Source: a virus. Taken from it: 64,000 nt of DNA. The position numbers and the translations under genes are program-made. The stretch lies in IMG/VR virus record IMGVR_UViG_3300045988_059906, one strand, 5' to 3'. The notes below the pieces were generated by a model. It saw nothing but the letters and a program-made list of their open reading frames with translations. It was not told where the DNA came from and made no database searches. Below are positions 21,837-53,212 of this stretch, in pieces (position 1 is the first letter of the stretch; the number at the start of each line of letters is the position of its first letter).

Positions 21837-22178
21837 TTAAGATAGTAATTCCTGTGCCTCAATCTCGCCGATTATTTTAGTAACCGCAATCTTGAACGGA
21901 TTTCCCTTAGTCTTGTCAAACAGATGTACATCACGTACCTCGTCAACCTTGTCAGGAACATTCACCTTTCTTTTCCCTCTCTCTATGGTCTTCCAAGTGA
22001 TGACTTCGCACCGTTTCACGTCATAAACGCTATCGTTGCGGTCTACATAGACCCTGAAGAAGTTCTTCTTATGCTTCACAATCTCAACTCTTTTAAAGTT
22101 TTTGATGTTAGCATGAAATTTCAAATCGCATTTTCCGTTAGGTAAGAAAATCAATTCTGCCATAATGATACTCCGCAT
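21837..22178 (-). CDS. hypothetical protein
   Basis: 113-aa ORF. Confidence 0.35.
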   Translation of the reverse strand: MRSIIMAELIFLPNGKCDLKFHANIKNFKRVEIVKHKKNFFRVYVDRNDSVYDVKRCEVITWKTIERGKRKVNVPDKVDEVRDVHLFDKTKGNPFKIAVTKIIGEIEAQELLS

Positions 22179-22299
22179 AGTCGGAGATTCAAAGTTAAAC
22201 TATGTTAATTCCAGTCTTTCGTCTGGCACTCCACCTCGTTTTAACCAATAGCTACTGTTCTTCACTACTTGAGCTAAGCTCTAAACTGGGATAAAGGTA

Positions 22300-22683
22300 T
22301 TATTCTATATACATAAATGGTTTTCCAAATTCTTGCCTGAAAGACTCAAGCCAGCCTTCCATTTCCTCATCACTATCAAAATAGATAGACTCATCATGTC
22401 TCTCAGAGAACTCTAGAATAATATGCGGCTTCTGGTATACTATTCCATCCTTGTAGAAGGACGTTCTCTTACTAATTGATTCGAGCATCCCTTTCTCAGA
22501 GTAAGTCCCAAAGCATGGGTCTAGAAGATACCAATAATCAATATGCCTTTTCCAGAATAAAAATTTGGTATCCGCTATTCTATGCTTCCATTCTGGATGT
22601 TTTCTAGTTTTAAAAACTAGTATCCTCTTTATTAAATTTCCATTAATATATTTATCCATAATTAATCCCAATATTCTGGACAA
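22300..22683 (-). CDS. hypothetical protein
   Basis: 127-aa ORF. Confidence 0.35.
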   Translation of the reverse strand: MSRILGLIMDKYINGNLIKRILVFKTRKHPEWKHRIADTKFLFWKRHIDYWYLLDPCFGTYSEKGMLESISKRTSFYKDGIVYQKPHIILEFSERHDESIYFDSDEEMEGWLESFRQEFGKPFMYIE

Positions 22684-27143: not shown

Positions 27144-29117
27144 TTACTTCACTTCTTCAAACTCAGTTGTTTCAGCTTTCTTCTCCTCCAACTCTTTCTT
27201 GCCGAGAACACTTTTCAGTGTATCAGCGAAAGGTATAGAGCGAAGCAAGTCGAACGCAGGATTCAAGTTCTCAGCAGTTTTAGCCATGAAGTTACCAGCG
27301 GTATTCTCGTTACCATAAACAGTAACCTGTCCAAGGTGAACGTGTTCAAACATCTGAGCAGATGCTTCTGCAATACCTGTCAACTGGTCAACTGTCTTGT
27401 ACTGAACCACCATTTCAGGAGTCAAGCCGGATTCAATCATCTTCTGGACTGCCAGAGCAGGAGCCATTTCAATAGCCTGAACCTTGTCAGCCTCAGCCAT
27501 CAAAGACGCTCTCTTACCCTCAGCTTCAGCAAGCAGTTTCTTTCTTGTACCTTCAGCTTCGGCTTCTAGCTGCAACTTCGTAGCATTTGCTTTAGCTTCT
27601 GCTTCTTTCAGAATTTCAGCAGCCTTAGCTTCTGCTTCAAGTACAGCCTTCTGCTTAACAGCTTCTGCCTCAATCGTAATACGTTCCTTTTCTTTTTGGG
27701 CAGGAACAATTGTCTCAGCATGAAGCTTAGCTTCCATAGCCAATGCAGCTGCTTCGTTTACTTCCAGTTGCTTTTCTTGCTTAGTTTTCTCGATAGTCAT
27801 TTGAGCTTCTACCTTAGAAGTTCCTGCTACCTTTTCAGCTTCAGCCTTAGCTTTCTCGGCTTCTCCCTTAGCTTTAGAGACTTCAATCGTGGCATTTTGT
27901 TCTGCCACTCCTGCAATCTTATCAGCTTCGGCTGCCTTTACACGCTTGTCTGACTCATACTTAGCAACTGCAGCTTCCTGTTCGTTAATTGCTTTTTGCG
28001 TCTCAGCTTCCTGTTTTTGCTTAGCCTGAGCAATACGAGTTTGTTTCTCTGCTTCTGCTTCTGCTTTCTTAGAGTCAGCTTCTGCTTTAGCCTTAGCTAC
28101 ATTAGCCTCAGCTAGTGATTCAGATTCTGCTCTATTAGAATCGGCTTCTGCTTGAGCTTTAGCTATAGCTGAAATTTTCTCAGCTTCTGCTTTAGCTTTC
28201 TCCGATTCCGCTGCAGTATTAGCTTTAGCAATATTGGCAGCTTGCTCAGCTTTCTGATTAGCAATACCCGATTGCTTATTCTTCTCAGCTTCTGCAAGTT
28301 TGATTTCCTTCTCCTGGTTAATCTCTGCCACACGAACCTCTTGCTCTTGTCTAGTCTGAGCAACAGTAGTTTCACGCTCTTTCTCAGCGTCTGCTACAGC
28401 AATTTCACGTTGCTTGTTGGTTTCTGCAATCTGAATATCTCCTTTCTTTTTCTCTTCTGCAATGTCTGCTTGTGCCTGAGCAAGAGCTTTAGTTGCAGCT
28501 TTCTGACCTAGATTCTTGATATAGTTTGCATCATCCGAAATATCAGCATTGTTAATGTTGATAATACTGAAACCTACCTTATTTAACTCGGTCTCAATAT
28601 TCTCCTTAGCTTTGCCGATAAACTTGATTCTATCAGCGTTAATTTCCTCAATCGTCATTGTAGCCATCAAGCTTCTCACTTCACCAATGAGAATATCCTT
28701 GATTTGGTCTGAGATTTCAGAAGTTTTAGCTGTTAAGAATCTACTTGCAGCGTTTTGCATTAATGTTTGAGTAGTTCCAATACCAGTGGTCAATGTTACA
28801 GGAATAGTTACCTTAATCATTTGACTGGAAACACCAGTAACATTTACTTGAATTTGGATAGGTTTCAAGGACATTTTAGCCCAGTCTTGGATTACTGGCA
28901 TTACGAATGTACCTCCACCATGAATGATTTTGGACGGCAGAATAACTTCCTCCGACTTTCCAGTCTTCTCGTTAACTACCTTCTTCTTACCAGCCTTACC
29001 AAACACAACCAAGATTTCATCACTGGCACACTTACGATACCGTGACAAAAGTCCAATAAAGGTTAAGACTACTAGCAATACAATAACACCTGCTACAATA
29101 AGAGTTTCTGTTGTCAT
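27144..29117 (-). CDS. flotillin-like SPFH/band-7 domain protein
   Basis: 657 aa: N-terminal transmembrane helix, SPFH-type domain, long Ala/Glu/Lys coiled-coil repeats and a flotillin-type C-terminus. Confidence 0.6.
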   Translation of the reverse strand: MTTETLIVAGVIVLLVVLTFIGLLSRYRKCASDEILVVFGKAGKKKVVNEKTGKSEEVILPSKIIHGGGTFVMPVIQDWAKMSLKPIQIQVNVTGVSSQMIKVTIPVTLTTGIGTTQTLMQNAASRFLTAKTSEISDQIKDILIGEVRSLMATMTIEEINADRIKFIGKAKENIETELNKVGFSIININNADISDDANYIKNLGQKAATKALAQAQADIAEEKKKGDIQIAETNKQREIAVADAEKERETTVAQTRQEQEVRVAEINQEKEIKLAEAEKNKQSGIANQKAEQAANIAKANTAAESEKAKAEAEKISAIAKAQAEADSNRAESESLAEANVAKAKAEADSKKAEAEAEKQTRIAQAKQKQEAETQKAINEQEAAVAKYESDKRVKAAEADKIAGVAEQNATIEVSKAKGEAEKAKAEAEKVAGTSKVEAQMTIEKTKQEKQLEVNEAAALAMEAKLHAETIVPAQKEKERITIEAEAVKQKAVLEAEAKAAEILKEAEAKANATKLQLEAEAEGTRKKLLAEAEGKRASLMAEADKVQAIEMAPALAVQKMIESGLTPEMVVQYKTVDQLTGIAEASAQMFEHVHLGQVTVYGNENTAGNFMAKTAENLNPAFDLLRSIPFADTLKSVLGKKELEEKKAETTEFEEVK

Positions 29118-33799: not shown

Positions 33800-34759
33800 T
33801 TAAATCTTCTCTTCGGAAATAAGCGCATTACCGCACGTTATTCTGTCAGCATCTTCTTCTTTAGAAGGAACAAATACGATAACATCCCAACCTTCTTCAA
33901 GTAAAGGCTGTTCGAATTGACGATAAACATTATAATCAGAGTAGCCAGTTACTTCAAAACCATTCTCAACTGCGGATGCAGTTTCATGAATAGGGGTTAT
34001 TTTCACAATAAACTTCTCTTTATCGAAAAGTCTAGATAACTCCTTTGCATCCAGAATAGTCTGTGCAGTAACTGGGAAATTCAACGTATACTTTCTACCT
34101 TTCGGCATAGGTAAACGACTAGCCATTTCAGAAATAGTAGCTAATGAATGACTTTTGTTGTCAAATAGCTCTCTTCTCTGTTCGTCATTAGTAGAATTTA
34201 TTGAGAATTGAAGACCTGCCTCACCTCCATAGAAGTCATTCTTGATTCCACACCAAGTTTGTATGAAGTTCTCTAGTTTTCTATTAGCTCTAGGAAGCAT
34301 AGTAGAAACTACTGGATGGACAGTCTTAGCTATCAATCCACAACTCTTTACTACTTCTTTTAGAACAATCCCAAATGCTAGTACATTATCATTCCAAGTT
34401 GGCTCTCCCATTCTTGCGAAATGCACATTGAATCTGTCAGTATTCCTAACAGTCTCATTCTTGATAATGTTTCTTATTTGCCATTCCATCTCTTCAATAG
34501 AAACGTTTCCATAGAATCCAAATTTCGGAACATCACAGAACTTGCATTTCATTGGGCATCCTTTCTGGGTGGAAATGGTTGCAACCCACTTTTTACTAAG
34601 GTCAACTTCAGTATTGGCTACTCCATTAATCTCCTTAGTTAATCCTAGGAAATTAGCTTTGATATTGTTCTCCTTTCCATAGTCTCCTACGGTTAGAAAT
34701 TCAAGTTTATGTTCTGTATCAACATAAATCTTTCCTGTGTGAGTAAGTATTGTCTTCAT
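33800..34759 (-). CDS. radical SAM domain protein
   Basis: CPMKCKFC is a CxxxCxxC cluster motif, followed by a GEP-containing segment. Confidence 0.5.
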   Translation of the reverse strand: MKTILTHTGKIYVDTEHKLEFLTVGDYGKENNIKANFLGLTKEINGVANTEVDLSKKWVATISTQKGCPMKCKFCDVPKFGFYGNVSIEEMEWQIRNIIKNETVRNTDRFNVHFARMGEPTWNDNVLAFGIVLKEVVKSCGLIAKTVHPVVSTMLPRANRKLENFIQTWCGIKNDFYGGEAGLQFSINSTNDEQRRELFDNKSHSLATISEMASRLPMPKGRKYTLNFPVTAQTILDAKELSRLFDKEKFIVKITPIHETASAVENGFEVTGYSDYNVYRQFEQPLLEEGWDVIVFVPSKEEDADRITCGNALISEEKI

Positions 34760-35786: not shown

Positions 35787-36272
35787 TTATCTCCAGCAAT
35801 GCTTTTCAAGCATCTTTTGAAAGATAGGAATATCAGAAACAGATGCGAAAAGTAACATACAAGACCTTACTTTAATTACATCGTTTCCAAATATCTCGTA
35901 AACTGATTTCTCATTATTATAGACCGCTTCTGTGATTTCAACTAACCTATCTCTCAATATAGGATGGTTGATATATTCAATAGCTTCATCACGTCCACTT
36001 ATTCCATAATAACGAGACTTTTCACTCGTGCCAAGCCTCCTCATTTGAGGAAAGATAAACCAAATCCAATGTGTTTTCTTCTTCCCTGCTTTGACTTCTT
36101 CCAAGGCAGTTTGATAAGTATTCCACTTATCTTGTGCTTCAATGAATCTGTCAAGTCCAAGATACATTTTGCGAGCAAGTTGTCTTGTTTCTTCTAGAGG
36201 AAGTCCACTCTGATCTAATTGAGAGTGAGGCATAGCCAGTTGGCACCACTCTTTGAATGTAAATTTATTCAT
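35787..36272 (-). CDS. hypothetical protein (HWIWFIFPQ motif)
   Basis: 161-aa ORF. Its stop codon abuts the hammerhead ribozyme. Confidence 0.4.
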   Translation of the reverse strand: MNKFTFKEWCQLAMPHSQLDQSGLPLEETRQLARKMYLGLDRFIEAQDKWNTYQTALEEVKAGKKKTHWIWFIFPQMRRLGTSEKSRYYGISGRDEAIEYINHPILRDRLVEITEAVYNNEKSVYEIFGNDVIKVRSCMLLFASVSDIPIFQKMLEKHCWR

Positions 36273-37455
36273 CTTTATTTAAATGTTTATAACCTAGCAT
36301 TCCCATCATGGTAAGAGATAAGAATGGATTATATAGCTTTTTGGGACTAACATCATACATTCCAGATCCTCCAAATACAGATTTTACAGGAATATCTGGG
36401 CCTACTATAGTAAATACTCCTTTTATAGGGTCAGAATTAAGAACCTATGTTGCATAATCGTCTGTAAGAACACCTTCAGACATATTTACAGAACGTGCTC
36501 TATCCTTGCTTAAATAAGCACCTATTGGACCTCCTGCCCAATTATTAGAAGATGGATTAGCTTTCTGCCTTTTTATAAGCCTAATCTAGTCATCCCAGTT
36601 GGGATTAATTATAGAAGGTTTAACTGGTAGTCCCCAGATTGCAAAGTCTCCGTAAGCTTTTGCTCCTCTTGGATTAGAACTGAACCATTTCTCATAATTC
36701 TGGTTATTTTTTCCGGTTTCAAAACTATGTTTATCCTTAATTCCAGACCTCATTGTGATACCATTATATAAAAGATTCTTACCTTGAGGAGAGTTTGCCT
36801 AGATATAATACATAGTTTCTATGTTGCTTAGATTCTTCCTTCCATTAGCAGTATATCTTCCATTAGGCTATCTTATCAGCTTACCAGACTTAATTAGCTC
36901 ATTATAAGTTTGAACAAACTAGGGAAAAGCTTTTTTAGTGAATAAGTCTATTTCCTCCTGTGACATCTTATGTCCTGAAGCTAGTGATTGCCAATTTTCT
37001 AAAGAATAATCAAGTCCCGTTCGAAGTCTAAACTTTTCTGCTTCTTCGTTATGCTCTTTGATTACTTTCTTTTGTTGATTAGATCTGGCTTTAGCCTTAG
37101 ACTTATTTTCCTCAATTCTTTTTTCTACGGCTTGAGTCTGTTTGTAAGATGATAAGCTTTGAAGTTTTCCTTCTTTATTCCTAATGTATTCAACTCCCTA
37201 TGGGTCAAATATTCTTCCCTTCGTTTCTCGCCAACCTTTCTTTATTAAAACGTTTGAAAGTTTCTTTATTTGCCCTCCTGTGATTCCTGGAATAATTAAG
37301 CCTGTAGCTGCTAAACCCATACTTATATAATCTTTATCTTTTGCGGCATGAATAAAATCATGTGCGTCCTATGCTTCTCCAACTCCAGGAATAAATCCTG
37401 CTAGGAAGTCTAGTATAGGATTTTTGTCTCTAAATTCTTTTACTTTGTCTTCCAT
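36265..37455 (-). CDS. hypothetical protein encoded with in-frame TAG codons (TAG-containing island in the standard-code module)
   Basis: Read by eye, the minus-strand frame stays open from ATG (37455) to TAA (36267) over about 397 codons with at least 8 TAG and no TAA or TGA. The six-frame track shows no long ORF here for that reason. Confidence 0.5.
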
Positions 37456-37522
37456 AAATATTTAATTTTTATTTATAGAATACTACACATTTGTTTGCTA
37501 AATAGCAAGTATTTTACACTAC

Positions 37523-37544
37523 GTAGGTAGACTATTCTACCTAC
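37523..37544. promoter_or_regulatory. perfect 8-bp inverted repeat (gtaggtag..ctacctac) upstream of the TAG-containing gene
   Basis: Palindrome with a 6-nt spacer, about 70 nt upstream of the start codon at 37455. Confidence 0.35.
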
Positions 37545-37559
37545 CGCTCTCCGCCTAAA

Positions 37560-37586
37560 GCCTATTTATACTCGCGAAGTCGAGTT
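37560..37586 (-). promoter_or_regulatory. conserved hairpin-plus-tataaa element, copy A
   Basis: gcctatttatactcgcgaagtcgagtt. The copy at 38541-38567 has the same stem actcg/cgagt with a different loop, and both lie upstream of minus-strand genes. Confidence 0.35.
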
Positions 37587-37920
37587 AGAATGTTTTGTAT
37601 CCGTACTTTTGCAAAACTGATCTTAAATCACTTAGCGATTTCCTTCCAACACCAGGCATTTTCATGAAATCACGCCAAGAATAGTTTTCCATGAAAATGT
37701 TGAGAGAGATATAAACTTGATCATCCAACATAGCTCTAATACGGCTAGCTGTCCTAGGTTGCATTTCTGGAAGAATACTCGCCAGTGTAATGTTTCTATT
37801 TTTCCTTTCAAGTGCTGTAATCTCTGGATAAATACCTAAAGACCATAATACGGAACAAAGTAAATCAGCCTCTCTATCAGAGAGAACTTTTGTTGTTTCT
37901 AGAATTTTTATCTCTTTCAT
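37585..37920 (-). CDS. hypothetical protein
   Basis: 111-aa ORF. Confidence 0.35.
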   Translation of the reverse strand: MKEIKILETTKVLSDREADLLCSVLWSLGIYPEITALERKNRNITLASILPEMQPRTASRIRAMLDDQVYISLNIFMENYSWRDFMKMPGVGRKSLSDLRSVLQKYGYKTF

Positions 37921-38244
37921 ATATAACTAGTATTGCATTTTACACCTAAAACTCTATGAGCAGCAACTCACATTCAAAGAATAGTTTGCTTGCGTTTTAT
38001 AATAAAGAAACTGGTGCCCTCAATGTCTTGGGAAGTTATTGAGTTTTTTAAAGAAAGCTATACTAAATCCCATTCACGTAAGGCTTCTTCTGGAGTACAT
38101 CCAGCCTTAATAGACTGAAGTACTTCATATTGAAGACCATATTGAGCAGCAATTTGCATAGCTTTTTCTTCTCTTACCATTTTGGCATAGAGAGTTTCTG
38201 TTTTCTTTTTTGTCAATTTGCTCATAATATTTATGTTTTAGTTA

Positions 38245-38472
38245 TTAAAACTCTAGCATGAGATATTCCCATACATCCCTTTCTTCGTTCGACTGTTTTA
38301 AAGGAATTAAATTCCCCTTTGGTTCGATATAGAGATCCGAAACCTCAAAGGAACACCCGATAGATAGAAAATATCCAGCAAACGCTAATACCTCGTCATA
38401 ATTATTACATTCAAATCCACAGCTAGCAGAAGCAAAATGCAGTTCCTCTGGGATAATAACTCTTTTTTTCAT
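38245..38472 (-). CDS. hypothetical protein
   Basis: 75-aa ORF. Confidence 0.3.
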   Translation of the reverse strand: MKKRVIIPEELHFASASCGFECNNYDEVLAFAGYFLSIGCSFEVSDLYIEPKGNLIPLKQSNEERDVWEYLMLEF

Positions 38473-38540
38473 TTTTTGTTTTGATTAGTTAATACAACCC
38501 AAGTAAGATGTAAAGTCCTACTTGACGCACTAGACCTAAT

Positions 38541-38567
38541 GCCTGTTTATACTCGTCTAGTCGAGTT
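38541..38567 (-). promoter_or_regulatory. conserved hairpin-plus-tataaa element, copy B
   Basis: gcctgtttatactcgtctagtcgagtt. See copy A. Confidence 0.35.
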
Positions 38568-38738
38568 TTGAAATAGATATGATGTTAGTTCTAGCAATTG
38601 TACATAAAGGTAAATTATTATCCTTTAAAGGCTGAACAAAATTATCGTCCACTTTATACTCGTTACAATATACGTAGTCAATGCCATATCTATATTTAAA
38701 AGTAATCTTATATTTCATAATTTTACTTACTTTGAGTT

Positions 38739-38791
38739 AATCCTGACACAAATGTGTTTCGTCGCAATTTTCAGCGACTCATCAGAGGATT
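38739..38791 (-). ncRNA. hammerhead ribozyme (type I), copy 2
   Basis: The minus-strand RNA reads AAUCCU-CUGAUGA-GUCGC(UGAAAAUU)GCGAC-GAA-ACAC(AUUU)GUGU-C|AGGAUU. The cores match copy 1, with compensatory changes in stems II and III. Confidence 0.75.
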
Positions 38792-38820
38792 TTTAAAAAT
38801 ATCCCCACAGCGGTGGGGAT
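38791..38820 (-). terminator. rho-independent terminator (minus strand)
   Basis: Hairpin atccccacagcggtggggat (7-bp GC-rich stem), followed on the minus strand by a U run (rc of aaaaat). Confidence 0.5.
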
Positions 38821-39861
38821 AAAAAATGAACACTATCAAAAGACCTTCCTGTGCCACTCTCCTTTGAATTGTTTCACAACAATTACATAGTCTCTGGGCG
38901 TACTCATTATAGTCTCCAATAATACACAACAATAGTTCCCTACTCTGGACTTGAACCAGAATCTTCTCCTTTAGAGAGAGATATACTGACTTGTACTAGT
39001 AGGGAAATACTCCACTGCCTAAGCTCCCTATGGGAGCTGTAGGCTATCTAGAATAAGATGGAGAGTTATTTAGATAGTTTCCTATGCTATCTACGTTACT
39101 AACGTTCACTAAGAATATAGGTAGCTAATCCATATTCTTGCGACTGAGTTCGAGGTAGGAAATATACCCTTATGAGGTATCCTCTTATCAGCTAACCTTA
39201 TTTTAATCTAGCGGCTTATACTAGGCAACTTCTAAATAAATAAAATGCATAACTATAAGTGATATGCTTTGGTCGACTGGCATATCAGCAGTACTTCATA
39301 ATATTGCTATAAGTGACCAACCCTATAGCTCAATCCTCTTGTAATAGTGTTTAAGTTTGCGAATATACACATTACAATCGTAGCAGTTATTTTCGGATAT
39401 TGGGCTATCTGCGTAACCCCGCTTTTTGTTGCCTTTTTATGGGCTAATGTTAGAGTAAATAATCATTGTAGTATGAGTTATAAAACTCGTCCTACTGGCG
39501 ATTTTTTGAAAACTGGAAAAAGTCGGAAAATTGGCTGCCGACGTTCTGGACAATTATTCTCCTTACTCTCCATATTTTCACGTGAAACATACACGATTTT
39601 ACTAGAAATGATAGTCTTTCCTATCAGCCAGACATAAAACTAAAACTACTACAAAAGTTAACTCGGTTTTTGATTTTTTTTTGTTTTGTTGTTGATTTCT
39701 CCGTTGACCAATGTTCCAATGATGGAGTTCATATGGGCATTTTATTTTAACTCATAATACCTTAGAGCTGCACGTTTGACTTATTTTAAATCTCGTTGTG
39801 CGCTGAGATTGACTCTAAGATTCGGTCACACTCTCACTTATTTATACACGAGAGAGTCGTG

Positions 39862-40056
39862 TTAATCTACAAAGACAATTCTTATTACTTTTGGGATGTC
39901 TTCTTCTGACTTTTGATAAGTCATAATCCATGCTTCAGAAGCTTTACAATAAACTCTGTCCGCTTTGAGATTTAACTTTTCTCCAGTCTTTGGGTCATAG
40001 ATTGCTCCCCAGCTATACAAACACTTTTTCGTTCTGAACTTTTTTCTCGTGTCCAT
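39862..40056 (-). CDS. hypothetical protein
   Basis: 64-aa ORF. Confidence 0.3.
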   Translation of the reverse strand: MDTRKKFRTKKCLYSWGAIYDPKTGEKLNLKADRVYCKASEAWIMTYQKSEEDIPKVIRIVFVD

Positions 40057-40107
40057 AACTACAAAGACTATTTGTATGTAAAAGAAAGGGGATTTCTCCC
40101 CTTTCTT

Positions 40108-40554
40108 TTACTCGTAATCCTCAACCTCAAGCTTGTAAGTTCTCTTGGTATAAGCTGGAACTTCTCCGTGTGCCTCGATGTCTTCAGAGGTGATGCTCTT
40201 AACCACAAATGTTACTTTGTGGTCTATGCACCAAACAAGGAAATTTGCATTTTCCAAAGGAGTAGAACCAATAGCAGGAGCTTCGTCGTCGATAGTTACG
40301 CCAGCGAAGTGTTTAGCTCCGATTGATGCACCACTGTCAGTTGTGAAAGTGATAGGCACAAACCTTGCTTGTCCTTCTCTTTGTGTGTTGTTTGTCAATT
40401 CCATTTTGTTCATAGCAACAATCTGGAACTTATCGCCCTTCTTCAAGCCGACAACAACTGAACGTTCATTACCTTCCAAACCTAATGAGTTTACCACTGA
40501 TTTAGCACGTTCTTCTACGCTGAGATTACTGTTTTTTAATTCTTCGAGTGTCAT
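40108..40554 (-). CDS. hypothetical protein
   Basis: 148-aa ORF. This is the last minus-strand gene before the strand switch. Confidence 0.4.
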   Translation of the reverse strand: MTLEELKNSNLSVEERAKSVVNSLGLEGNERSVVVGLKKGDKFQIVAMNKMELTNNTQREGQARFVPITFTTDSGASIGAKHFAGVTIDDEAPAIGSTPLENANFLVWCIDHKVTFVVKSITSEDIEAHGEVPAYTKRTYKLEVEDYE

Positions 40555-40872
40555 AATACTAAAAATTTTTAATTTGTTAATACTGTGAGTTACTTTTGTT
40601 TTTGTTTTAGTTTTATATCAATATACAGGGGGGGACTAAAGGGGTTGTGGACCGCCATAACAGTCTCTCATATAATTTTCGGAATCTAGGTAATTTTCAC
40701 CTGTATATAAATTCCGAATTTATTAAACCCCCAGGGGGCTATTTATATAAAGTACCTGTACCCATTTGCGGATAACTAAATGAAATATGTATAATATTAG
40801 AATTAGAATTTTTTAACTTTGTATTTAACTTTTCAGAAGGTATTGTTGTATATAACTAAAAAAGAAACAATT

Positions 40873-41274
40873 ATGATTACAGACTTAGAAACATTACTAA
40901 ATTAGGACGAGTTTAAGAATCTCGTTGATGCAATTAATAAGAACTAGGAGTATTATCTATCAAGTAATGGTCTAACCATTAAAGCGGAATCTACAGATGA
41001 TTCTTTATTCTTATTAATATCTTATGAGAGATAGAAAGAGGAAAGCTGTCTAGCTAATGAAGAAGTAGGCAAATTCCAGAAATACTTAGAATCTTTAGAT
41101 GATGATTTATTTATAGATGTCTGCGAATATCTAGGAGAGTCCGAATTGAATAAAATTCAAGAATGTTTGGAAAGTGGAAAATTGGAATCAGTAAGAGCTG
41201 GAATTACTAAATTCAGAATGGCATTATCTAATGTGGTAACTATGAAAATAGAACAACTGAAAGCATATGTATGA
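40873..41274 (+). CDS. hypothetical protein, 3 in-frame TAG
   Basis: The frame from ATG (40873) to TGA (41272) is open except for three TAG codons. Confidence 0.45.
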
Positions 41275-41407
41275 ACAAATAGCTCAAATAAGAATACTCC
41301 TTGCTAATGTAAATGCAACCATGTAGGCTTTATTTCACGAAAACGAACAGCTAAGGAAAGAACTAGAGAAATTGGCAGCGGAGAATAAATCTCTAAAAGA
41401 GAAATAA
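41267..41407 (+). CDS. small protein, 1 in-frame TAG
   Basis: ATGTATGA overlaps the upstream stop. One TAG, ends with TAA. Confidence 0.3.
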
Positions 41408-41411
41408 ATAC

Positions 41412-41483
41412 TGCCCTATGGTGTAATGGTCAGCACAGATGACTCTAAATCATTTAGTCTGGGTTCGAATCCTAGTAGGGCAA
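41412..41483 (+). tRNA. amber suppressor tRNA (anticodon CTA), tRNA-Gln-derived
   Basis: TGCCCTA-TG-GTGT-AATGGTCA-GCAC-A-GATGA-CTCTAAA-TCATT-TAGT-CTGGG-TTCGAAT-CCTAG-TAGGGCA-A. U1:A72, and the D arm is near-identical to both tRNA-Gln(UUG) genes. The anticodon CTA sits at 41445-41447. Confidence 0.8.
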
Positions 41484-41500
41484 CGCCAAAATTAATAGTT

Positions 41501-41728
41501 ATGATAAATTTAAATGAGAATTATGCTGTAACTCCAACAGGAGCTAAGACCCTTATTATTGAAGAGGGAGATGATTGGAATAAAGTTTGCGATAAGGTAG
41601 TTGGATGTAGATTTGATTACATATTTGTACCTCAAGAATTTGAGAATCAAGCCTGCTACTTTCTTCCACAAATAAGTATTCAAGGAAAGCAGATAGGTAA
41701 GATATGTACTTATAAAGTAGTGAAATGA
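41501..41728 (+). CDS. hypothetical protein
   Basis: ORF track 41426..41728, trimmed to the Met after the tRNA. Confidence 0.35.
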   Translation: MINLNENYAVTPTGAKTLIIEEGDDWNKVCDKVVGCRFDYIFVPQEFENQACYFLPQISIQGKQIGKICTYKVVK

Positions 41729-42039
41729 AACAGTGTGCAGTCGTATTGAATGGTAATGATGTTGTCAAAGTTTCTAATTTAAAAAGAAAGTATGACAAAA
41801 TAATGAGTAATCCCAATATGAAAATATTGGAGGAGTGTGATAAGGAAATGCTAGATGAGAAATACAACTACTGGAATAGAACATTAAATAGAAATATAGA
41901 AGAGGAGAAAAATGAGGAAGCAAAACTCCATCATTTTAGGAATCCAAAAACAGGTTGCACTATAGCAAGTATCTATCCAGATTTAGAGGAATGTAAATCA
42001 TATATAAAAGACTGGATGGATTATGTTAAACTTGACTGA
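41725..42039 (+). CDS. hypothetical protein
   Basis: 104-aa ORF. Confidence 0.35.
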   Translation: MKQCAVVLNGNDVVKVSNLKRKYDKIMSNPNMKILEECDKEMLDEKYNYWNRTLNRNIEEEKNEEAKLHHFRNPKTGCTIASIYPDLEECKSYIKDWMDYVKLD

Positions 42040-42207
42040 TAAATACAATGAACTAACTAAGCCAAATTTAAAAGAGTTATCTGAAACTATACTCCTAGCA
42101 GCAGAATCTTTAATTGAGATTGTTGCAGAAGAAGGAAAACAAAATGAACAATGGTTTCTAGATTACCTAGATGAATTAAATAGACTAAGTGTAATATACT
42201 AAAATAT

Positions 42208-42444
42208 ATGGATAAAGAATTTAAATTTGAAGTCTTTATTAACGGCCAACTAATAAATATGATAAAAGCTGGATATTTAGAAAGTACACTTAGAAGTGTT
42301 CCGGAGAATAAATCATTACTGATTGATATATGGAATGTAGTTGACAATTCAGTTAGAAATCTAATTAAAAATGGACTATATAAAGACACTACACTAGAAA
42401 AAGCAATAATTGATAATACATTTGAGGGATATGATAGACTTTAA
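42208..42444 (+). CDS. hypothetical protein
   Basis: 78-aa ORF. Confidence 0.35.
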   Translation: MDKEFKFEVFINGQLINMIKAGYLESTLRSVPENKSLLIDIWNVVDNSVRNLIKNGLYKDTTLEKAIIDNTFEGYDRL

Positions 42445-42646
42445 AAAGACATTGACAAACTTACATAATGAATTTCCAGAATTTGACTTGGATACATTAT
42501 TTAAAATAGTAGATGCTATAGTAGAAACTTCTACTCCTACAATAACCATCCCAAGTGGTATTAGATAGCCATCAGATAAACCTTGGTGGGAGGATGGTAT
42601 AAATAGAATCACTTGTACTTATGATACAAAGTATAATGTTAAATAA
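42431..42646 (+). CDS. small protein, 1 in-frame TAG
   Basis: ATG at 42431 through TAA at 42644, with one TAG. Confidence 0.3.
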
Positions 42647-42950
42647 AAATAGGCGAACCTAATCTCTAGGCTCACCTATTTTGTTATATAATATAGTACC
42701 AATCAGTTCTCTCCATGACTCCCTTTTCTCTAAGCTATTTATTATCTAAATGATAATCTCCGTTTCTGAAATTCAATTCCTTTTTAGAATAATCCCAATA
42801 AAAATATCCTCTCCATCCAGGAAGTAAGAGAGTACGACCTGTTGCCGCGTGTAAAGTTGCTTTGTTATAGTCCATGTTACTTTTTAAATATAAATAGTAA
42901 ATATAGATATATTCTTAATACAATCTCTTTAATGCACTTAATAATGTTTT

Positions 42951-43292
42951 TCATCGTTTCTTAGTTTTAATAAATCCATAAGTTCCCTTCTTTAATCTAG
43001 TAGTAGGAATCCATCCATTATCTAGAATAGACCTATGTCCACTCGGTTTATGTATCTTAGCCCCATCTTCGTGTTTCCATTTAGAAGCATTTCTAGCAAA
43101 ATTAGCTCGCTTCTTCTAAAGAGGGGTAGCGTTAGGATTGTTTAGTACATGCTTAGCGTGTTCTTGTACAGATTCTCCTGCTGCCTTGGCAGATGCTGTA
43201 AATTTGCCTCTGTTCTTCTCTTTAATGTGAATGCCCGACCCATTTTTGAAAATTGGACACCCAAATGTTGTAATTTTCTTACTGTTAGACAT
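42951..43292 (-). CDS. hypothetical protein, 1 in-frame TAG (minus strand)
   Basis: From ATG (43292) to TGA (42951), with one TAG between NATPL and KKRANF. Confidence 0.4.
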
Positions 43293-45470: not shown

Positions 45471-45681
45471 TGAAAAAGTTTATTTTAAGCCTGGGGATTG
45501 TGTTACTTTACGGTAGTGTAAAGTAATGCACTCTCCAGTTATGCTTGTTCTAAGAAGAGAAGCAGCTTTATTTAAAGATAACCAAGGATTACGAGGACTA
45601 AGATGTAGATGGTTTACTGATTCTGGATTAATGCAGGAAGCAGTATTTAATACAAAGGATTTAATTAAAGTAGAAGAGTAA
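45457..45681 (+). CDS. small protein, 1 in-frame TAG
   Basis: ATG at 45457 through TAA at 45679, with one TAG. Confidence 0.3.
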
Positions 45682-46253
45682 TGGCTAATTAGGAAGAATT
45701 ACAGAAGGCATTCATGGCATACTTGATACAAGATGCCCAAGCACAAGGAATACAATTACAATCAGAGCAAGATTTATAGGCTTACGCTGAATAGCTTGGA
45801 GAAGATGGAATTAAAGCCAAGTATCAAGAATTTATGTAGAAGATGCAAGGCGGAGTTATGGCTAGACTTGGAGCTAAACTAGAATACTATAAAAAATTAA
45901 AAGGAGTATGCCCAGAAGGAGAGGAACTTGTTTATTTTAAACAGGGAGGAAGAATCTGCAAAGCTTGCCAAAAAGCATAGAAAGGAACTAAGGTTACTAA
46001 GAAAGCTAATGAAGTTGACAAGTTCAAAGCTGGAAGAGCTTAGTATAAAAAGGATATGAAATCTGCAAAGGATGAAGCATCTAGGGATTCTGTGTCCATT
46101 AATAAATATAATGACTAGGAGGTCATGGCAAATAGAGGACACAGGGGAAACTTTAAAAATGGAAAATGGGTTCCAGATAGAACAAAGTATGCTAAGAAGG
46201 ATGCTTGTGGTTCTAAAATGAAAGTAAGTAAATGCGGTTCTAAAATGAAATAA
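45681..46253 (+). CDS. Gln-rich protein, 8 in-frame TAG
   Basis: Reading TAG as Q gives MANQEELQKAF...IQLQSEQDLQAYAEQLGEDG, where TAG sits among CAA/CAG-encoded glutamines. Ends with TAA. Confidence 0.5.
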
Positions 46254-46289
46254 AAAGATTAAAGATGTTAATGTTAATGATTGATGAGT

Positions 46290-46850
46290 ATGAATGTATT
46301 TAATTATAACACTTTAACTAAATAGTTAGAAATAAATGAACCAGAGCTTCTTCTAGTTAAAGAGTTTAAGGCTTTGATACAGAGAGATAAATCTGTTGAC
46401 AAGGAACGAGTAACTAGAGAATTATCTTACATTTATCTAGCTATTGATTGGAAGAGTCCCTATAGCCAATATTCAGAACATGAAAGACATGATGAAGCTA
46501 TTAGTGACTCTGGACTATCTGAATCCGAATTTAATGACCCGTTATTCAGGGAAGCCTGTAGAAAATACCGAGCATTGTAGGATTCTAACAAATCAATAAA
46601 ACTTCTAGAAGCAGCTAAAAGAGCAGCTGACTAGTTTATTGATTATTTTGATACTATAGTAGATTTAAATGAACGTGATAATAATGGCAAACCCGTCTTT
46701 CAAGCTGAAAAGGTAATGAAAGAAATGGCTACTCTTCATAAAGTTCATGAAGAATTAGTAACACTAGAAGAGCAGGTTAAGAAAGAGCTTACAGAACAAT
46801 CTACTGTAAGAGGTGGAGCTACAGACGGCTTTGACCCAGGAGACTTTTAA
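46290..46850 (+). CDS. putative terminase small subunit or DNA-binding protein, 3 in-frame TAG
   Basis: Continuous frame from ATG (46290) to TAA (46848), immediately upstream of TerL. Confidence 0.35.
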
Positions 46851-46852
46851 TT

Positions 46853-49213
46853 ATGCCTAGAAAGAAAAAAATATTACCTGAAGAAATCTAGAATATAGTA
46901 GATTAGGTAAGAGAGAAAGAACAAAAAGAGGATGCCAAAGAAGCTAGAGAACTAGTATAGAAGATAAGAGAGGAAAGGGGCAAAAATGCTGATTATTGGG
47001 ATGTAAAGAGAGGAGATAAGATAGAGGTATTTGACCCTACTTTATCTTATGAAATAACTGGATATAGACCAATAGATGAAACACACGGTCTTGACTTCGA
47101 CCCAGATTGGTTTACTGAGACCAGAGAAGTGTATAGAAAAACTGGAAAGTATTGTCCATATCTAAAAGATAGTAAGAGATATAATGAGTTTTGGAAGGAA
47201 TAGTATAGAAGATGTAAATACGGAATGACTGTTAATGGTTATACAATTACTGGAGATAACTATTTCTTCCTAAACTTCTACTAGCTTCCTATTATTGATG
47301 ATAACAAGGCATCTGGAGAAGGAACAAGTAGTGACTTTCCTATATTTTTCGCATCTCATTATATGTTCTTTCATTATCTATAGATGGCTAGAGTTCTGCA
47401 TAAACACGCAGCTCTTATGAAAGCTCGTTCTATTGGATTCTCTGAAATAAATGCATCCTTATCTGCAAGAATGTATTCAGTAATCAGAAGAAGCAGAGTA
47501 ATGATTACTTGTTTTAATGATACCTTCCTTAAAGGTACTTTTAGTAAGTTTGATAATGCTTTAACATTCTTGAATACTTGTACAGGAGGAGGATTCTTCA
47601 AACTACGTTTGATTGACCAAGACTTAAGAAAGAAGTCTGGTAAACAGATTAAGGTAAACGGACAGTTTGAGGATGTTGGATTTAAATCAGAAGTAGTTGG
47701 AATAAATGGAGCTAAGGCATCTAATATTCGTGGAGACCGTGTTGACCTATTAATATATGATGAAGCGGGGTCTTGGCCCGGACTAGATACTGCTGTAGTG
47801 CAGGGACAAGAGCTTTGTGAAGTTCAGGGTAAACCTCGTGGAACAATGTTATTTGGAGGTACTGGTGGTGATATGGGTGCTCCATTAGCAGGTCTTAAGA
47901 AGATATATTACAATCCAAAAGCTTACAAAGTTCTTCCATTTAGACATAATTATACACAGGATGGGACTACTATTGAAAGTGGGTTCTTCATTCCATATTT
48001 TGTCTAGTCTCTAAATTCAGAATACATGGACCATAGAGGTGTATGTAATACAGTAGAATATAAAAAGTATCTATAGGAAGAGCGTGACAATTTATTAGCA
48101 GTTCCAGACGACTATCTAAAGAAGTGTGCCGAACGATGTTGGAATGCAGAAGAAGCATTTAATCTTGAAGGTGTTAACAAGTTCAACAAGATTCTTATTG
48201 CGGACCAGTTAGCTAATATAAGACTTAAGAAAATAGGACCAAGACCAGAATCTGGATACATAGACTATTTCTATAAAAATAATAAACACACCTAGGATAA
48301 TATAGATGGTTTTAAATGGATTCCTAATATTAACGGAAAAGTAAAAATACTTGAACATCCTGTATGGTCTGATTTGTATAAAGAGTAGATGGATAAACTT
48401 AGATAGGAAGCCGAGGAAAGGGGAGAAGAATTTGAATCTCCAGCGTACAAAGAAATGCATGATTTATATGTTGCAGGAATAGACGGTATTGATATAGGAG
48501 CTAGTCAAACTTCAAAAGAAACAAGAGATCCTTCTGATTTCTGTATAACTATAAAAAGAAGAGCATTTGGTCTAAACGAACCGTAGTATGTTGCTATGTA
48601 TAAAGACAGACCTAATGACATTAGAGAAGCCTATAAAATAGCTATGTGTTTAGCTAGATACTATAATTGTAGAATAAACATAGAAGCTACCCGTGTAGGT
48701 ATGATTACCTGGGCTAGAGAAAAGGGTTGTTTAAACTACTTTATGAAAAGACCTAGAGCTACTCTAACAGACGTCAAGAATGGAACTACTAAATAGTACG
48801 GAACACCCGCTACCAAAACTATTATAGAACAACATACTGATTTGACAGCAGCCTTTATTGAGGATTTCTGTCATACTATATGGTTTGAAGAAATGTTAGA
48901 CCAATTTACTGGATATAATGATGAGAATAAAGGTAAATTCGATATTGTAGCAGCTGTGGGAATGACAGAATTGGCAGACTAGGAATTGTCAGGAAGATAG
49001 CCAGTGCTTGTTGAAAAAGAAGTTGAACAATTCCAAGATTATGGTTATTATTACGACGAGAGAGGAATCAAAAGATTTGGGGTTATACCAACTTCTAAGA
49101 CTTTTGAAACTAACATACAAAAAAATGAATACGATGACCCATACAGAATTGAAACAAGTGATCCTAGGTTATATGAGAGACTTGTACAAAATGGAATACG
49201 TAGGTGGGCTTGA
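46853..49213 (+). CDS. terminase large subunit (TerL), with in-frame TAG
   Basis: About 787 codons in frame 2, with multiple in-frame TAG and a TGA stop. Contains the Walker B-like LLIYDEAGS and the nuclease-domain YVAGIDGIDIG. Confidence 0.65.
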
Positions 49214-49371
49214 AATTCAGAACCTAGATCCAGTTGGTTATAAGGTATCGTTTAACTTTGATAGGTCAGAGATGCCTTTAGTCATTATAGCTGATTTACC
49301 TGATGAAGAATTTCTCCCATTTATAAAGGAAGAATTAAGAAGTAGGAAGTTACAAAGAGTTAAATACTATA

Positions 49372-51582
49372 ATGCAACTAAACTTCCTCCAGAACAGCAT
49401 AATTTATGTTATGAAAGAAAAAGAACTGATAGACAAGACGAACGAGGCTATTGCGGAGCTTGTATATGATAAGTACGAATTATAGAAAGCCTATAATTAC
49501 TATAACGGAAAGAGAGACCCAGAATAGTTTCGTTACCTGGAAGAAAACTTTGGAATAGGTAGTCCTACTTCTGTAGAATTTACACCATTACTAAAAAAGC
49601 ACGTAGATGCTCTAGTAGGGGAATATCTAGGAACCCCTATCCTTCCGAAGATTTCTTGTAAGGATTCAGATACCATTAGTAATATCACCAGAGAAAAATA
49701 GTTAGAAATAACTAAAGGAATAGTTAAATTTCTTAGAGACCATTTAAGTAATTCTATTCTGAAATTTATCGACGGAAAAGATATTACAGATAAAGCCGTG
49801 AAGACTTAGTTAGATAAAATTATTCAAGACATTGATTAGTCTTTTATTTCTCAATATGAGATAGCTGCATAGAATATTATTCATTATATCATGCAGTCTA
49901 GAGAAACCGATTTAATAACTAAACTCCGATAGTTACTTACAGATTTATTAATTACTGGCTATACATTTTTCAGAGTAAAATCATCATCTTCTGGAACTAA
50001 CATAGAAATAGAAGTTCTGAATCCTTTAAATACTTTCGTAGATAGGAATCCAGAATCTCCATATGTTAGAAATTCGTATAGAGTTGTGGTTAGAAAATGG
50101 ATGAGTAAAAGCTAGATATTAGCTAAATACGGAAAAGAAATCTCTAGAGAAGATTTGAAAAGACTAAAAGATGAATGGAGAGCTGATGATTCAGCTGCAG
50201 TTTATAGAAGAGTTTATGGTGACACTTGTACTATAGTAAATGAAGACTAGAATCATGAAACTATTCCTGGATACCCAGATAATGAATATAGTGCTCATAG
50301 ATTTTAGTTAATTCCTGTTTATGATGTAGAGTGGATAGAAACTGATGACGATTTTGTAATGTAGAGATACAATACCATTAGAATTGGAGAAGAAATATAT
50401 ATTCTGAGAGGTCTAGACAAGACTGTTATGAGGTCGAAAGATAATCCTAATTTCTGCTCTTTGTCTGTAAATGGAGTATATTTCTTAAATCGCTCTCAAC
50501 AACCGTACTCTCTGATATTAAAGTGTGCACATCTACAGGATAGATATGACTTGTTAAATTATTATAGGGATAACCTGATAGCTAACAGCGGTACTGCTGG
50601 AGTAATCATGGATATGTCATTGCTTCCTACTAACCTAGGCGTAAAATGGCCAGAAAGAGTGTAGAAATGGTTAGCATACAAGAAGGGTGGTATCATGTGG
50701 ATTGATTCTACTTAGGAAGGGAGAAATGACGGAGCGCAAGCACCTAACTAGATATACAATGGATTTGATGATACCTTAAAAGCTTAGGCTGTATAGGCTA
50801 TTGAATTAGCAATTCAATCAGTAGAACAAACTACATCATCTATAACTGGAGTATTTAGAGAAAGATTAAATGGAATAGAAACTCACGATGCTGTAACTAA
50901 TATTAAGCAAGGTGTTACTAACTCTTACATAGTAACCAAGCATTATTTCTAGTAGATGGACCTAATCACTTGTGAGATATTATTGGATAGTCTAAACTAG
51001 GCTAAAATAACATATAAGAAAGGATTAACTGGAACTATTATACTTGGGGATAAATATCAACAGATATTCACCGCACTTCCTGAGTATTTTACTGTTACTG
51101 ACTACGATATTCATATTACTGCTAGTTCAGAAGTGATGGAAGATCTATAGACTATAAAAGCAATCATTCCAGAGTTCGTAAAAAGTCAACAGATGGACCC
51201 AGATATTATTTTTGAGGCTCTTACATCTAAGAGTCTGACAGACCTTAAATATAAGGTTAAGAAAGCTGTTCAAGTTCGCAAAGAGGAAAATAATCAGCTT
51301 CAGCAACTACAAGAAAAATTAGAAGAAACTTCTCAATAGGCTCAGTAGTTATAGCAAGAATTATAGAAAGCTCAGCAAAAGATTGAAAGCTTAGATGAAT
51401 AGAGACTAGGATTAGAATAGTAGAAGATGCAGTTAGAATATAAAGTTAACTGGCTTAAAGCTCAGTCTGATTTTACATATAAAGATAGACAAATGGATAT
51501 AGAAGAAAAGAGAACTGAAATAGAGTTAGCTTAGCTTCATGATGGAAATCCATATAATGACAAAATAAGACAAATACATTAA
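49372..51582 (+). CDS. putative portal protein, with in-frame TAG
   Basis: Frame 1 is open from ATG (49372 or 49411) to TAA (51580), with many TAG. It lies directly downstream of TerL. Boundaries are approximate. Confidence 0.4.
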
Positions 51583-51583
51583 T

Positions 51584-52318
51584 ATGGCAACTGGAACAAT
51601 TGTATATAATAAGGATTAGCAATAGATTTATCCTATTTCAGATGGTTCAGTAATTATTAGTAATGCTTCTGGTTCCAAATCAAATGTGGAAGAAGATTTA
51701 AAGAAACTATTTAAATAGGTGTCAGATCTTTCTGGTTCTAGTGAAGCGGTAAATAATATTATTATTAAGATTCATTACTTACCTGCTGATACTGCTGAAG
51801 AATCTGAGATAAAATTATCTACTAAATAGTGGACTGATACTTTTGAACTTCCAACTGAAGAGAATCCATACATCTGGAAAAGAACTAAATTTACTTTCTA
51901 GGGAGCTGACGAATCTCAGGGAACTACTATTTATGAGATTGTGGCAAGCGATGTTTCTACTATTATCTAGAATATATACACTAGAACTGAGGGAATAACT
52001 CCAGTTATTGAGTATAAGCAGAAAACAGATGAGGATGGAAATCCTCTATATGTAGATTCAGAAGGACATGAAACAACGACTGTTACTCCAACTAAGGCAT
52101 ATGACTATAATTATTATTGGAATGGGAAACCAGCTGGTAAATTAAATAGTCTACCACCGACTCCTGAAGGTTAGTCATATACATGGACAGACTATCCTCA
52201 AGATATTAGTTTATCATTTAGTTCAGTTTTTATGTCTAGACGTATACGACAAGAAGGTAAGTGGAAACCATTTTCTACTCCTGCTCAATATGGTCAATGG
52301 CCTACTACTGAGTCTTAA
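51584..52318 (+). CDS. structural protein, with in-frame TAG
   Basis: Frame 2 from ATG (51584) to TAA (52316), with several TAG. Confidence 0.35.
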
Positions 52319-52511
52319 TTATTATAATATGGAATTTAGTATTGATATACATACCCAGATTAACGGGGAAATAACTATTGAAGACTTTTCAAAGGAATAT
52401 GGATAGTATATTGATGAAGATTTAGAGGTAGTAACTTCCTATGATTCTTATAAGTATAGTGAAAGTGCTACCCTAAATACTATCATAAAAGTTAGTATAG
52501 GAGATGCTACT

Positions 52512-53057
52512 TTGATAGACGTACTTCTCAATGACCATACAGAGGATTTAGACTCTTGTACATTTAAGGTGAAAGAAGATGGATATTATGTAGTAGACCA
52601 CATAATTCTTCCTAATATGAAATGGTATGAAAATTCATCTGATGAATACAAGGAGTATTATGAAACTATCTATATAACTGATGGAGAGAAACTATATAAA
52701 GAAGTAGATGGAGAGCTAGAGGAATGTACTGTAAAAGAAATCCTTGAGAGAAATATAGAAGGAACTACTATCAAAAAATGTAAGGTAGATGTATTCTTTA
52801 CAGGAAATCTGCAATAGTGTTATATTAACTACTGTAAGAAACTCTTTGACTCTTTATTAAATAAGTGTCTAACTAGAGAACATGATGCAGATATATTTGC
52901 AAGAGATTTTATCTGGATGACACTTAATATTATAGATTATTTAATAGGCTTTAAACAATTCATGGAAGCTGAAAGATTGTTAGCAATGTTCCGCACTTGC
53001 GGTGGATTCTGTGACAATCACCATGAACATAAACGTATAGGTTGTGGATGCTCTTAA
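52512..53057 (+). CDS. zinc-binding protein, 1 in-frame TAG
   Basis: ORF 52512..52817 continues through a TAG to TAA at 53055. C-terminal CGGFCDNHHEHKRIGCGC. Confidence 0.35.
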
Positions 53058-53212
53058 AAGAAAGGCTATTAAAAGGTATGAGGATTTCCTTAAAAGGGTT
53101 AGAAAGGGATATAGACCAGATTATTAGGATATTTTGAATCTAATTTGTTTTATTAACCTACCCATAAAATTAGATAATCACGAATTTATTAAATAGCAAT
53201 TATTGAATCATA

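Follow-up and report, generated by a model that had tools for sequence, protein, structure and literature searches.

We examined a stretch of 64,000 nucleotides from the IMG/VR virus record IMGVR_UViG_3300045988_059906 (hereafter the window) and found that a minus-strand gene at 36265-37455, flanked by genes that contain no TAG, reads TAG as glutamine and encodes a modular protein. Its C-terminal domain and the TAG-free gene that follows it form a cassette that is swapped as a block in related phages. We call the TAG-containing gene the effector and the gene downstream its partner. On balance, though with some reserve, we favour the reading that effector and partner form a polymorphic cassette in which the effector stays locked up to the point where the phage switches its genetic code.

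A gene with seven TAG codons read as glutamine

The effector gene opens with ATG, runs for 396 sense codons and closes with TAA; in between, TAG occurs in frame seven times, at codons 29, 86, 179, 196, 219, 290 and 336. A preliminary description of this DNA, drawn from the letters alone, had proposed a gene of about 397 codons with at least eight TAG. The gene proved real and the count came down slightly, the eighth stop being the terminal TAA. The same description had allowed that the frame might hide a TAA or TGA, or that the region might be a decayed pseudogene without homologues. Translation of 36265-37455 revealed neither codon inside the frame, and in 2000 shuffles of the effector bases the longest run free of TAA and TGA averaged 76 codons and reached at most 206, compared with the actual 396. 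A metagenome protein search returned 48 homologues, 24 of which can be aligned over their full length at 28 to 99% identity. The frames of the full-length homologues, down to 28% identity, are all open with TAG taken as sense, and reading TAG in this way yields a full-length conserved protein. Near-identical copies of the gene sit on IMG/VR and metagenome contigs of 130 to 192 kb, a span that agrees with the large crAss-like family of Yutin et al. (2021, PMC7886860).

The database search that the preliminary description had recommended, with TAG translated as glutamine, found these metagenome relatives and came back empty elsewhere: there was no match in Pfam, PHROGs or PADLOC, by tblastn against GenBank phages or by a sequence-profile search of the Protein Data Bank (PDB). 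The lack of any match in Pfam, PHROGs and GenBank phages is what could speak for a decayed pseudogene or a chance open reading frame (ORF). Because homologues exist, this explanation is excluded for all practical purposes; the length of the open frame against the shuffled controls, the openness of the distant homologues, a confident AlphaFold2 (AF2) model of the protein and the conserved synteny with the partner gene in relatives argue against it as well. The closest relatives, whose effector genes are 99.4% identical, were of no use for weighing synonymous against non-synonymous changes. One related locus (the loci of relatives are numbered from L001) carries a broken copy of the gene: L018 has at 2725-3917 an N-terminal ORF of 83 aa followed by a 233-aa ORF with the C-terminal part, either a disrupted allele or an assembly artefact.

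The amino acid inserted at TAG is apparent from the alignment. Gln29, within the motif GEAQD, is near-invariant in the effector family and is written as TAG or CAR across about 25 loci: as TAG in the window and in L001, L005, L007, L009, L010, L011 to L014, L018, L019, L026, L032 and L034, and as CAA or CAG in L015 to L017, L020 to L023 and L027. Further TAG/CAR exchanges were found between the window effector and its 64%-identical homologue in L001. The window also holds 43 tRNA genes within 41 kb, mostly in its minus-strand half, and three of them have a CUA anticodon. The one at 41412-41484 (plus strand) has a body that resembles tRNA-Gln, sharing 70-71% identity with the two tRNA-Gln(UUG) of the window, and is likely a glutamine-inserting amber suppressor. 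The other two are not Gln-like and might be charged differently or serve another role; one lies at 10955-11027 (minus strand) and the other at 38935-39005, 1.5 kb upstream of the effector on the same strand and directly after a RAGATH-14 RNA.

Cassette exchange and TAG use in effector and partner

The first 63 codons of the effector (37267-37455, minus strand) encode a conserved N-terminal module with the pattern KVKEFRDKNPILDFLAGFIPGVGEAQDAHDF...GL.IPG.TGGQ, two hydrophobic helices and the TAG-encoded Gln29. The 24 full-length relatives align with the whole protein; other homologues share only the first ~65 residues, and the module is joined to at least six unrelated C-terminal domains, namely the window's type and at least five others. 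A profile of the module run against 1.84 billion representative proteins gave 182 matches at E<=1e-3, among them giant phage proteins with Phage_lysozyme2 (tail-lysozyme), ART-PolyVal and LPD23 domains. One protein with the module carries Kinase-PolyVal, and in a 1058-aa protein the module immediately precedes ART-PolyVal, its commonest annotated partner domain (10 of the 103 proteins scanned). A word-indexed search with the module returned only TAG-truncated fragments. The majority of the phage proteins that carry the module, among them that of the window, have it at residue 1 or beginning a few residues later.

The partner gene (35787-36272, minus strand) encodes 161 aa without any TAG and belongs to DUF1810 (PF08837; Rv1873/2JEK family), with E=1.2e-41 and 142 bits in Pfam, above the gathering score, and E=8.6e-22 against PDB 2JEK (Rv1873). 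The partner start and the effector stop share 8 nt (ATGAATAA). On the other side the effector follows a gene of 111-117 aa (37585-37920 or 37585-37938, minus strand) that likewise has no TAG, so the ordinary minus-strand neighbours of the preliminary description are indeed present.

The C-terminal domain of the effector and the partner gene together make up the swappable cassette (35790-37265, minus strand). In L034, from a 153.6-kb contig, and in L019 the flanks are 90-98% identical to those of the window, yet the cassette site is occupied by an unrelated domain and a 131-aa partner. Homology is lost at window position 37265 (codon ~63, after ...PGITGGQ) and regained at 35790, where DUF1810 stops. 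The cassette of L014 shares 98-99% identity with that of the window, compared with 74-93% for the flanks. From this block replacement and from the identity of the L014 cassette we conclude that domain and partner move as one unit. Judging from these sequence comparisons, exchange among related phages by recombination at the module boundary appears to be the best explanation. The partner changes with the cassette type. Type A, that of the window, is followed by DUF1810 with an overlap of 4-17 nt; type C by DUF6939 about 100 nt downstream; type D by the 131-aa ORF, 113 nt downstream; and a divergent type A by a 129-aa ORF (11-nt overlap) and then DUF1810.

Effector and partner differ strictly in their use of TAG. 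At glutamine sites, TAG was used in 65 of 141 cases in effectors and in 0 of 34 in partners, a contrast that spans four cassette types and nine loci (Fisher p=1.6e-8, a value that overstates the significance because the loci are related and not independent). The contrast was present in every relative examined, all partners being TAG-free. Clean natural examples of the late-gene timing ascribed to stop-codon recoding in gut phages are few, and here the overlapping genes of one mobile cassette obey opposite coding rules. Neither position nor ancestry readily accounts for such a contrast, which points to selection on the timing of each protein.

Across the window, the TAG share of glutamine sites per gene is bimodal. 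It is 0 in most minus-strand genes, 0.37 in the effector, 0.38-0.75 over most of the structural module on the plus strand (with a lower value for one small ORF at the module end) and 0.75 in a GIY-YIG homing endonuclease gene (20588-21223, minus strand), which lies inside the tRNA array directly after a tRNA-Cys gene and has TAG at six of its eight glutamine sites. The effector, the GIY-YIG gene, a gene at 42951-43292 and a small ORF with one TAG at 42684-42875 are all on the minus strand, as expected from the preliminary statement that TAG-containing genes are not confined to the plus strand. That statement went further and suggested that TAG use seems to follow expression class, possibly that of late genes such as those for lysis, and not genome position; the bimodal shares and the effector/partner contrast do make it a gene-by-gene property, while the lysis example found no support. 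Annotation that assigns one code to a whole genome or strand will misread isolated recoded genes of this kind. We rejected the TAG-containing ORFs 10653-10943, 38771-39133 and 39106-39372 as genes, and the 5' parts of 20588-21379 and 21837-22448 as coding, because they overlap tRNA or RAGATH-14 genes.

Several early genes (216-1361, 3507-4403, 13339-15078 and 10927-11385, all minus strand) have TAG-free bodies and terminate in TAG, with a backup TAA or TGA 2-9 codons further on; in an adenylosuccinate-synthetase-like gene the TAG is codon 372 of 381 and is followed by its backup stop. Since the bodies of these genes are free of TAG and their ends are not, TAG still terminates their translation, and the standard-code module seen in the preliminary description is real. 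With the onset of suppression, each of them would acquire a few more residues at its C-terminus, an arrangement that fits the temporal code switch proposed in the literature.

Late-gene recoding of TAG to glutamine (code 15) has been described for gut phages, crAss-like ones included (Yutin et al. 2021, PMC7886860; Borges et al. 2021, 10.1101/2021.08.26.457843; Peters et al. 2022, PMC9523058), with the proposal that recoding delays the translation of late genes while replication and early genes are not recoded. Published work thus already covers late-gene recoding in crAss-like phages, the idea about its timing and the presence of recoded homing endonucleases within early regions. The window resembles these phages in that in-frame TAG aligns with glutamine, a phage tRNA(CUA) is present and the structural genes are recoded; moreover, the recoded homing or intron endonuclease in the early region of Agate phages parallels the GIY-YIG gene. 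It differs from them in that the recoded effector overlaps a TAG-free partner and early genes retain TAG as stop with backup stops. Borges et al. (10.1101/2021.08.26.457843) reported crAss-like phages with one contiguous recoded unit of structural and lysis genes, whereas here isolated recoded genes lie on the other strand in a standard-code, tRNA-rich region. The literature covered describes neither the effector family and the exchange of its cassettes, nor the strict contrast in TAG between effector and partner, nor the pistol and hammerhead ribozymes of the locus.

Function of the effector and competing explanations

Our reading of the effector leans on the likeness of its N-terminal module to a bacterial pre-toxin domain and of its C-terminal domain to ADP-ribosyltransferases (ARTs), and for both there are results that weigh against it. 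Bacterial polymorphic toxin systems with the pre-toxin domain PT-TG (Pfam PF14449) were reportedly described by Zhang, Aravind and colleagues in 2012. The effector module bears the signature GFIPGVGEAxD...IP..TGG, and a DNA-pattern scan for GFIPGVGEAxD also matched bacterial RHS-type and nuclease toxins, in which Pfam PT-TG spans the motif (E=2.4e-10 and 3.4e-7). Profile-profile comparison of the phage module with the bacterial PT-TG segments gave a probability of 98.8%, and 91% (E=1e-6) with the selecting motif deleted, although the comparison is biased because the bacterial examples had been picked by motif search. The phage system also shares with these toxins the unrelated C-terminal domains, the downstream gene that changes with them and the block replacement at the junction. 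Yet, a hmmscan of the phage effector proteins with Pfam PT-TG gave no match, and no secretion or trafficking domain (RHS, LXG and others) was found before the module, unlike in bacterial polymorphic toxins. The phage effector differs further in belonging to a lytic-type phage, in having its module at the extreme N-terminus and in being recoded while its partner is not. Since Pfam PT-TG does not score the phage proteins, we term the module PT-TG-like and do not count it as a member of PT-TG.

The C-terminal part of the effector (codons 64-396; 36265-37266, minus strand) comprises a helical linker, an alpha/beta domain (about residues 190-380, predicted local distance difference test score, pLDDT, >85) and a hydrophobic tail. 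In the AF2 model, pLDDT exceeds 85 for residues 65-380, which form one globular domain after the N-terminal module; the hydrophobic segments at residues 14-26, 45-60 and 378-390 appear as low-confidence helices. About 20 of the 60 top matches for the C-terminal domain were ART-fold proteins, among them SAIP, PARPs, diphtheria toxin, the RhsP2 toxin, Tpt1, AcrF11, RES and ParT. A separate model of the type C domain behaved alike (AcrF11 6.2, diphtheria toxin 6.1, SAIP 6.1, ExoA 6.0, ParT 5.5). By eye, candidate ART motifs were recognised in type A as M-[HRY]-x-G (about residue 236), W257-[FYH]-x-S-N and S-E327. On the opposite side, a Foldseek search of the effector against the PDB was non-significant (best E=1.6), Pfam, PHROGs and PDB profile searches provided no sequence link to any ART family, and no catalytic H/R or E is invariant in the family alignment. 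Alignment of the domain by hhalign with sequences of the ART-PolyVal (PF18760) type was also non-significant (probability 0.3%), and we therefore do not claim ART membership at the sequence level. From the models we consider an ART-like fold somewhat more likely than not and ART enzymatic activity less likely. Taken as a whole, the protein is best explained as a module of ~63 residues followed by a helical linker, an ART-like domain and a hydrophobic tail.

Phage polyvalent proteins, with their ART-PolyVal domain (Iyer et al. 2017, PMC5512222), have been proposed to be packaged and injected; T4 Alt is an ART injected from the virion. The effector shares its N-terminal module with giant ART-PolyVal, Kinase-PolyVal, LPD and tail-lysozyme proteins, in which a module followed by an ART domain is the commonest order, and its late synthesis, if it occurs, would suit packaging in the manner of T4 Alt. 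It has a single effector domain, hence it is not polyvalent, and this domain has no detectable sequence similarity to ART-PolyVal. Neither is a dedicated partner gene described for polyvalent proteins in the part of that source (PMC5512222) drawn on here.

ART toxins are also known in pairs with antitoxins that remove ADP-ribose, such as DarT-DarG and DarT1-NADAR, and in the pair Tre1-Tri1. The cassettes recall them in that an ART-like domain is followed by a small gene, and DUF6939, the partner in type C, shows a weak match (E=1e-3) to NADAR, the antitoxin of DarT1. They depart from them in the toxin-first gene order and in the window's DUF1810 partner, in which the Pfam scan revealed no similarity to NADAR, Macro or ARH. 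The DUF1810 family is widespread in bacteria and has Rv1873 of Mycobacterium tuberculosis among its members, and the literature on DUF1810 and Rv1873 gives neither a function nor a link to toxins, which counts against a partner that acts as antidote. What emerges is a family of exchangeable effectors, not annotated before, in phages that are very abundant in the human gut. For this family the hypothesis of an ART-like enzyme with a DUF1810 or DUF6939 partner is tractable, and two orphan Pfam families thereby gain a testable role.

The favoured reading can be put as a sequence of steps. The minus-strand transcript would be cut by the two flanking pistol ribozymes described below, leaving an effector/partner mRNA with a 66-nt leader. 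Under the host code alone, a release factor should halt translation at codon 29, inside the N-terminal module, and no effector would be made, while the TAG-free partner could be translated throughout infection. Once the phage tRNA(CUA) is abundant, the seven TAG codons would be read as glutamine and the full effector would appear alongside the TAG-rich structural proteins. It would then probably enter virions and be carried to the next host, on the model of T4 Alt and of the polyvalent proteins, a step that is speculative. Equally speculatively, the DUF1810 partner could protect the producing cell by neutralising the effector or reversing its modification, and the 8-nt overlap could permit translational coupling, with a completed effector chain followed by synthesis of the partner. 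The broader scheme, in which the code change acts as the safety catch of a phage polymorphic toxin and its antidote, the effector is packaged and injected, and cassettes are shuffled among ~190-kb crAss-like phages in an arms race, is possible but, in our opinion, doubtful.

The preliminary description had suggested a lysis function, and a late protein acting on membrane or wall, silenced by TAG until the end of infection, would account for the hydrophobic segments at both ends of the effector. Lysis genes are, according to published work, the most TAG-biased genes of recoded crAss-like phages; in L007 the effector adjoins a TAG-rich protein with faint peptidoglycan-binding matches, a TAG-rich SLT transglycosylase lies at a distance of 6 kb in L001 and L005, and some of the proteins that share the N-terminal module have phage tail lysozyme domains. 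However, Pfam and PHROGs placed the effector in no family of lysins, holins or spanins, and fold comparison identified no peptidoglycan-hydrolase fold in it; its globular domain resembles ARTs and not muramidases or amidases. A polymorphic C-terminus with a co-varying partner of cytoplasmic type (DUF1810, DUF6939) is also unlike lysis cassettes, and no endolysin adjoins the effector in the window. The anatomy is that of a polymorphic effector, and we regard a lysis protein as improbable.

The same anatomy could be that of a tail fibre or spike-type protein, with an N-terminus that docks to the virion, a C-terminus that binds host receptors and a chaperone encoded downstream, since fibre/chaperone pairs, too, combine a conserved N-terminus with an exchangeable C-terminus and a downstream gene that varies with it. 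The TAG density of the effector equals that of the structural genes, and its module is found in large virion-type proteins. We give this explanation little credence too: the domain is modelled as a compact alpha/beta fold whose neighbours are ART-like, with no fibre, beta-helix or knob; the partners are TAG-free, unlike late structural genes; DUF1810 is broadly bacterial; and the effector gene lies 8 kb outside the structural module, amid tRNA and early-type genes. It might be argued, finally, that the TAG codons have no regulatory meaning and are the legacy of a mobile cassette from a TAG-rich part of another recoded phage. The mobility of the cassette, which matches that of L014 better than its flanks do and is replaced outright in L034 and L019, would agree with this, as would the free drift of TAG positions between homologues. 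But the partners that travel with the effectors are without TAG throughout the nine loci, and the module that is not swapped also has TAG at its invariant Gln29 in most lineages, so a mere legacy seems quite unlikely to us.

Pistol ribozymes, the second TAG gene and the genome setting

The preliminary description had noted a perfect 8-bp palindrome, CTACGTAG, and a conserved hairpin with TATAAA upstream of the effector. Both are real, but they are parts of one pistol ribozyme (37517-37585, minus strand; RF02679, 63.3 bits vs a gathering score of 34.5) and not of a promoter. The palindrome, at 37519-37526, takes in the last part of stem P3 together with the G-U dinucleotide of the cleavage site, and TATAAA corresponds to the conserved AUAAA linker. 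A second pistol (38493-38566, minus strand; 64.2 bits) lies upstream of two small genes, and both match the RF02679 model over its full length, with AUAAA linker, stems and G-U dinucleotide kept. Pistol ribozymes cleave at G-U. By analogy, the first one is predicted to cut between G37522 and U37521, inside the palindrome, which would leave an effector 5' untranslated region of 66 nt. The first base of this ribozyme is the last base of the stop codon of the upstream gene. We know of no other pistol in such an intercistronic context in a recoded crAss-like phage. Compared with the pistols of Harris et al. (2015, PMC4604425), the window copies are alike in being full-length, at 63-64 bits, and the first differs in standing between a stop codon and a recoded gene of a crAss-like phage. 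Until now, phage recoding has been linked to hepatitis delta virus (HDV)-like theta ribozymes adjoining tRNAs, not to pistols.

The first pistol is kept at the same place in L011, L014, L019 and L034. At the site of the second, L011 has a RAGATH-1 hammerhead instead, and more distant relatives have hammerheads or pistols near the locus. Pistol and RAGATH-1 hammerhead swap at equivalent intergenic sites of relatives (window 38493-38566, minus strand; L011 11261-11330; L001 9357-9431; L005 8010-8080 and 9067-9141), and a sub-threshold type III hammerhead was located at window 38756-38808 (minus strand). In relatives, these ribozymes stand before TAG-free genes as well, so that we rejected the pistol as a specific regulator of recoded genes, a point that counts against the favoured reading; we read them as general intercistronic processing sites. 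The preliminary description had further proposed to compare promoter motifs, and by eye we saw none common to TAG-containing genes and absent from TAG-free ones. For annotation, the lesson is that promoter-like repeats in crAss-like genomes can be self-cleaving ribozymes.

Two small minus-strand genes lie between the pistols, the TAG-free upstream neighbour of the effector given above and a gene at 37974-38225, in which TAG at codon 56 of 83 is probably its stop. Further upstream, the RAGATH-14 RNA (39060-39233, minus strand; 167 bits) directly precedes the tRNA(CUA) gene at 38935-39005, an adjacency that recurs in L011 (10797-10990). A RAGATH-34 RNA is found at 15335-15432 (minus strand).

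The second TAG gene of the preliminary description, at 42951-43292 on the minus strand, was confirmed by translation. It has 113 codons, a single TAG at codon 59 as glutamine and a TGA stop. This TAG aligns with CAA or CAG glutamine codons in MT835470, the closest GenBank relative, and falls in the crAss-conserved motif IHIK.KNRGKFTA...KKRANFARNA.KW. The domain of the 113-aa protein occurs in many crAss-like phages as a small stand-alone gene annotated 'transcriptional regulator', in tandem copies in an 833-aa protein of Bacteroides phage DAC15 (L035, gene DAC15_59) and in a protein annotated 'tail lysozyme'.

The window has a GC content of 35%, and its GC skew changes sign near 40 kb. Genes are on the minus strand to ~40.5 kb and mostly on the plus strand beyond, the main exception being the second TAG gene with the small ORF next to it, at 42.7-43.3 kb. 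The TAG-dense structural module (45681-62691, plus strand) includes a terminase with 15 TAG, a portal with 28, tail proteins and a reverse transcriptase. Identity of the terminase is 26-28% with its counterparts in named crAss-like phages and 42-45% with those in two unannotated human-gut phage records. The window apparently derives from a large crAss-like gut phage. The reverse transcriptase (59291-60295, plus strand; RVT_1, E=1e-16, 6 TAG) may be part of a diversity-generating retroelement. TAG-free genes of the early region, at 27144-29117, 33800-34759 and 23200-24384 (all minus strand), include SPFH/Band-7, radical-SAM-like and AAA ATPase proteins; the SPFH/Band-7 protein has 657 aa and a long tail rich in Ala, Glu and Lys. 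A full-length transfer-messenger RNA (95 bits) was identified in a related 96-kb phage contig (L005, 16253-16722). In L007, two more TAG-rich genes (8097-9377 and 12565-13848) flank the effector amid TAG-free genes. They encode a 426-aa protein with peptidoglycan-binding-like repeats (9 TAG) and a 427-aa protein with HExxH (10 TAG), and may represent further islands of recoded genes.

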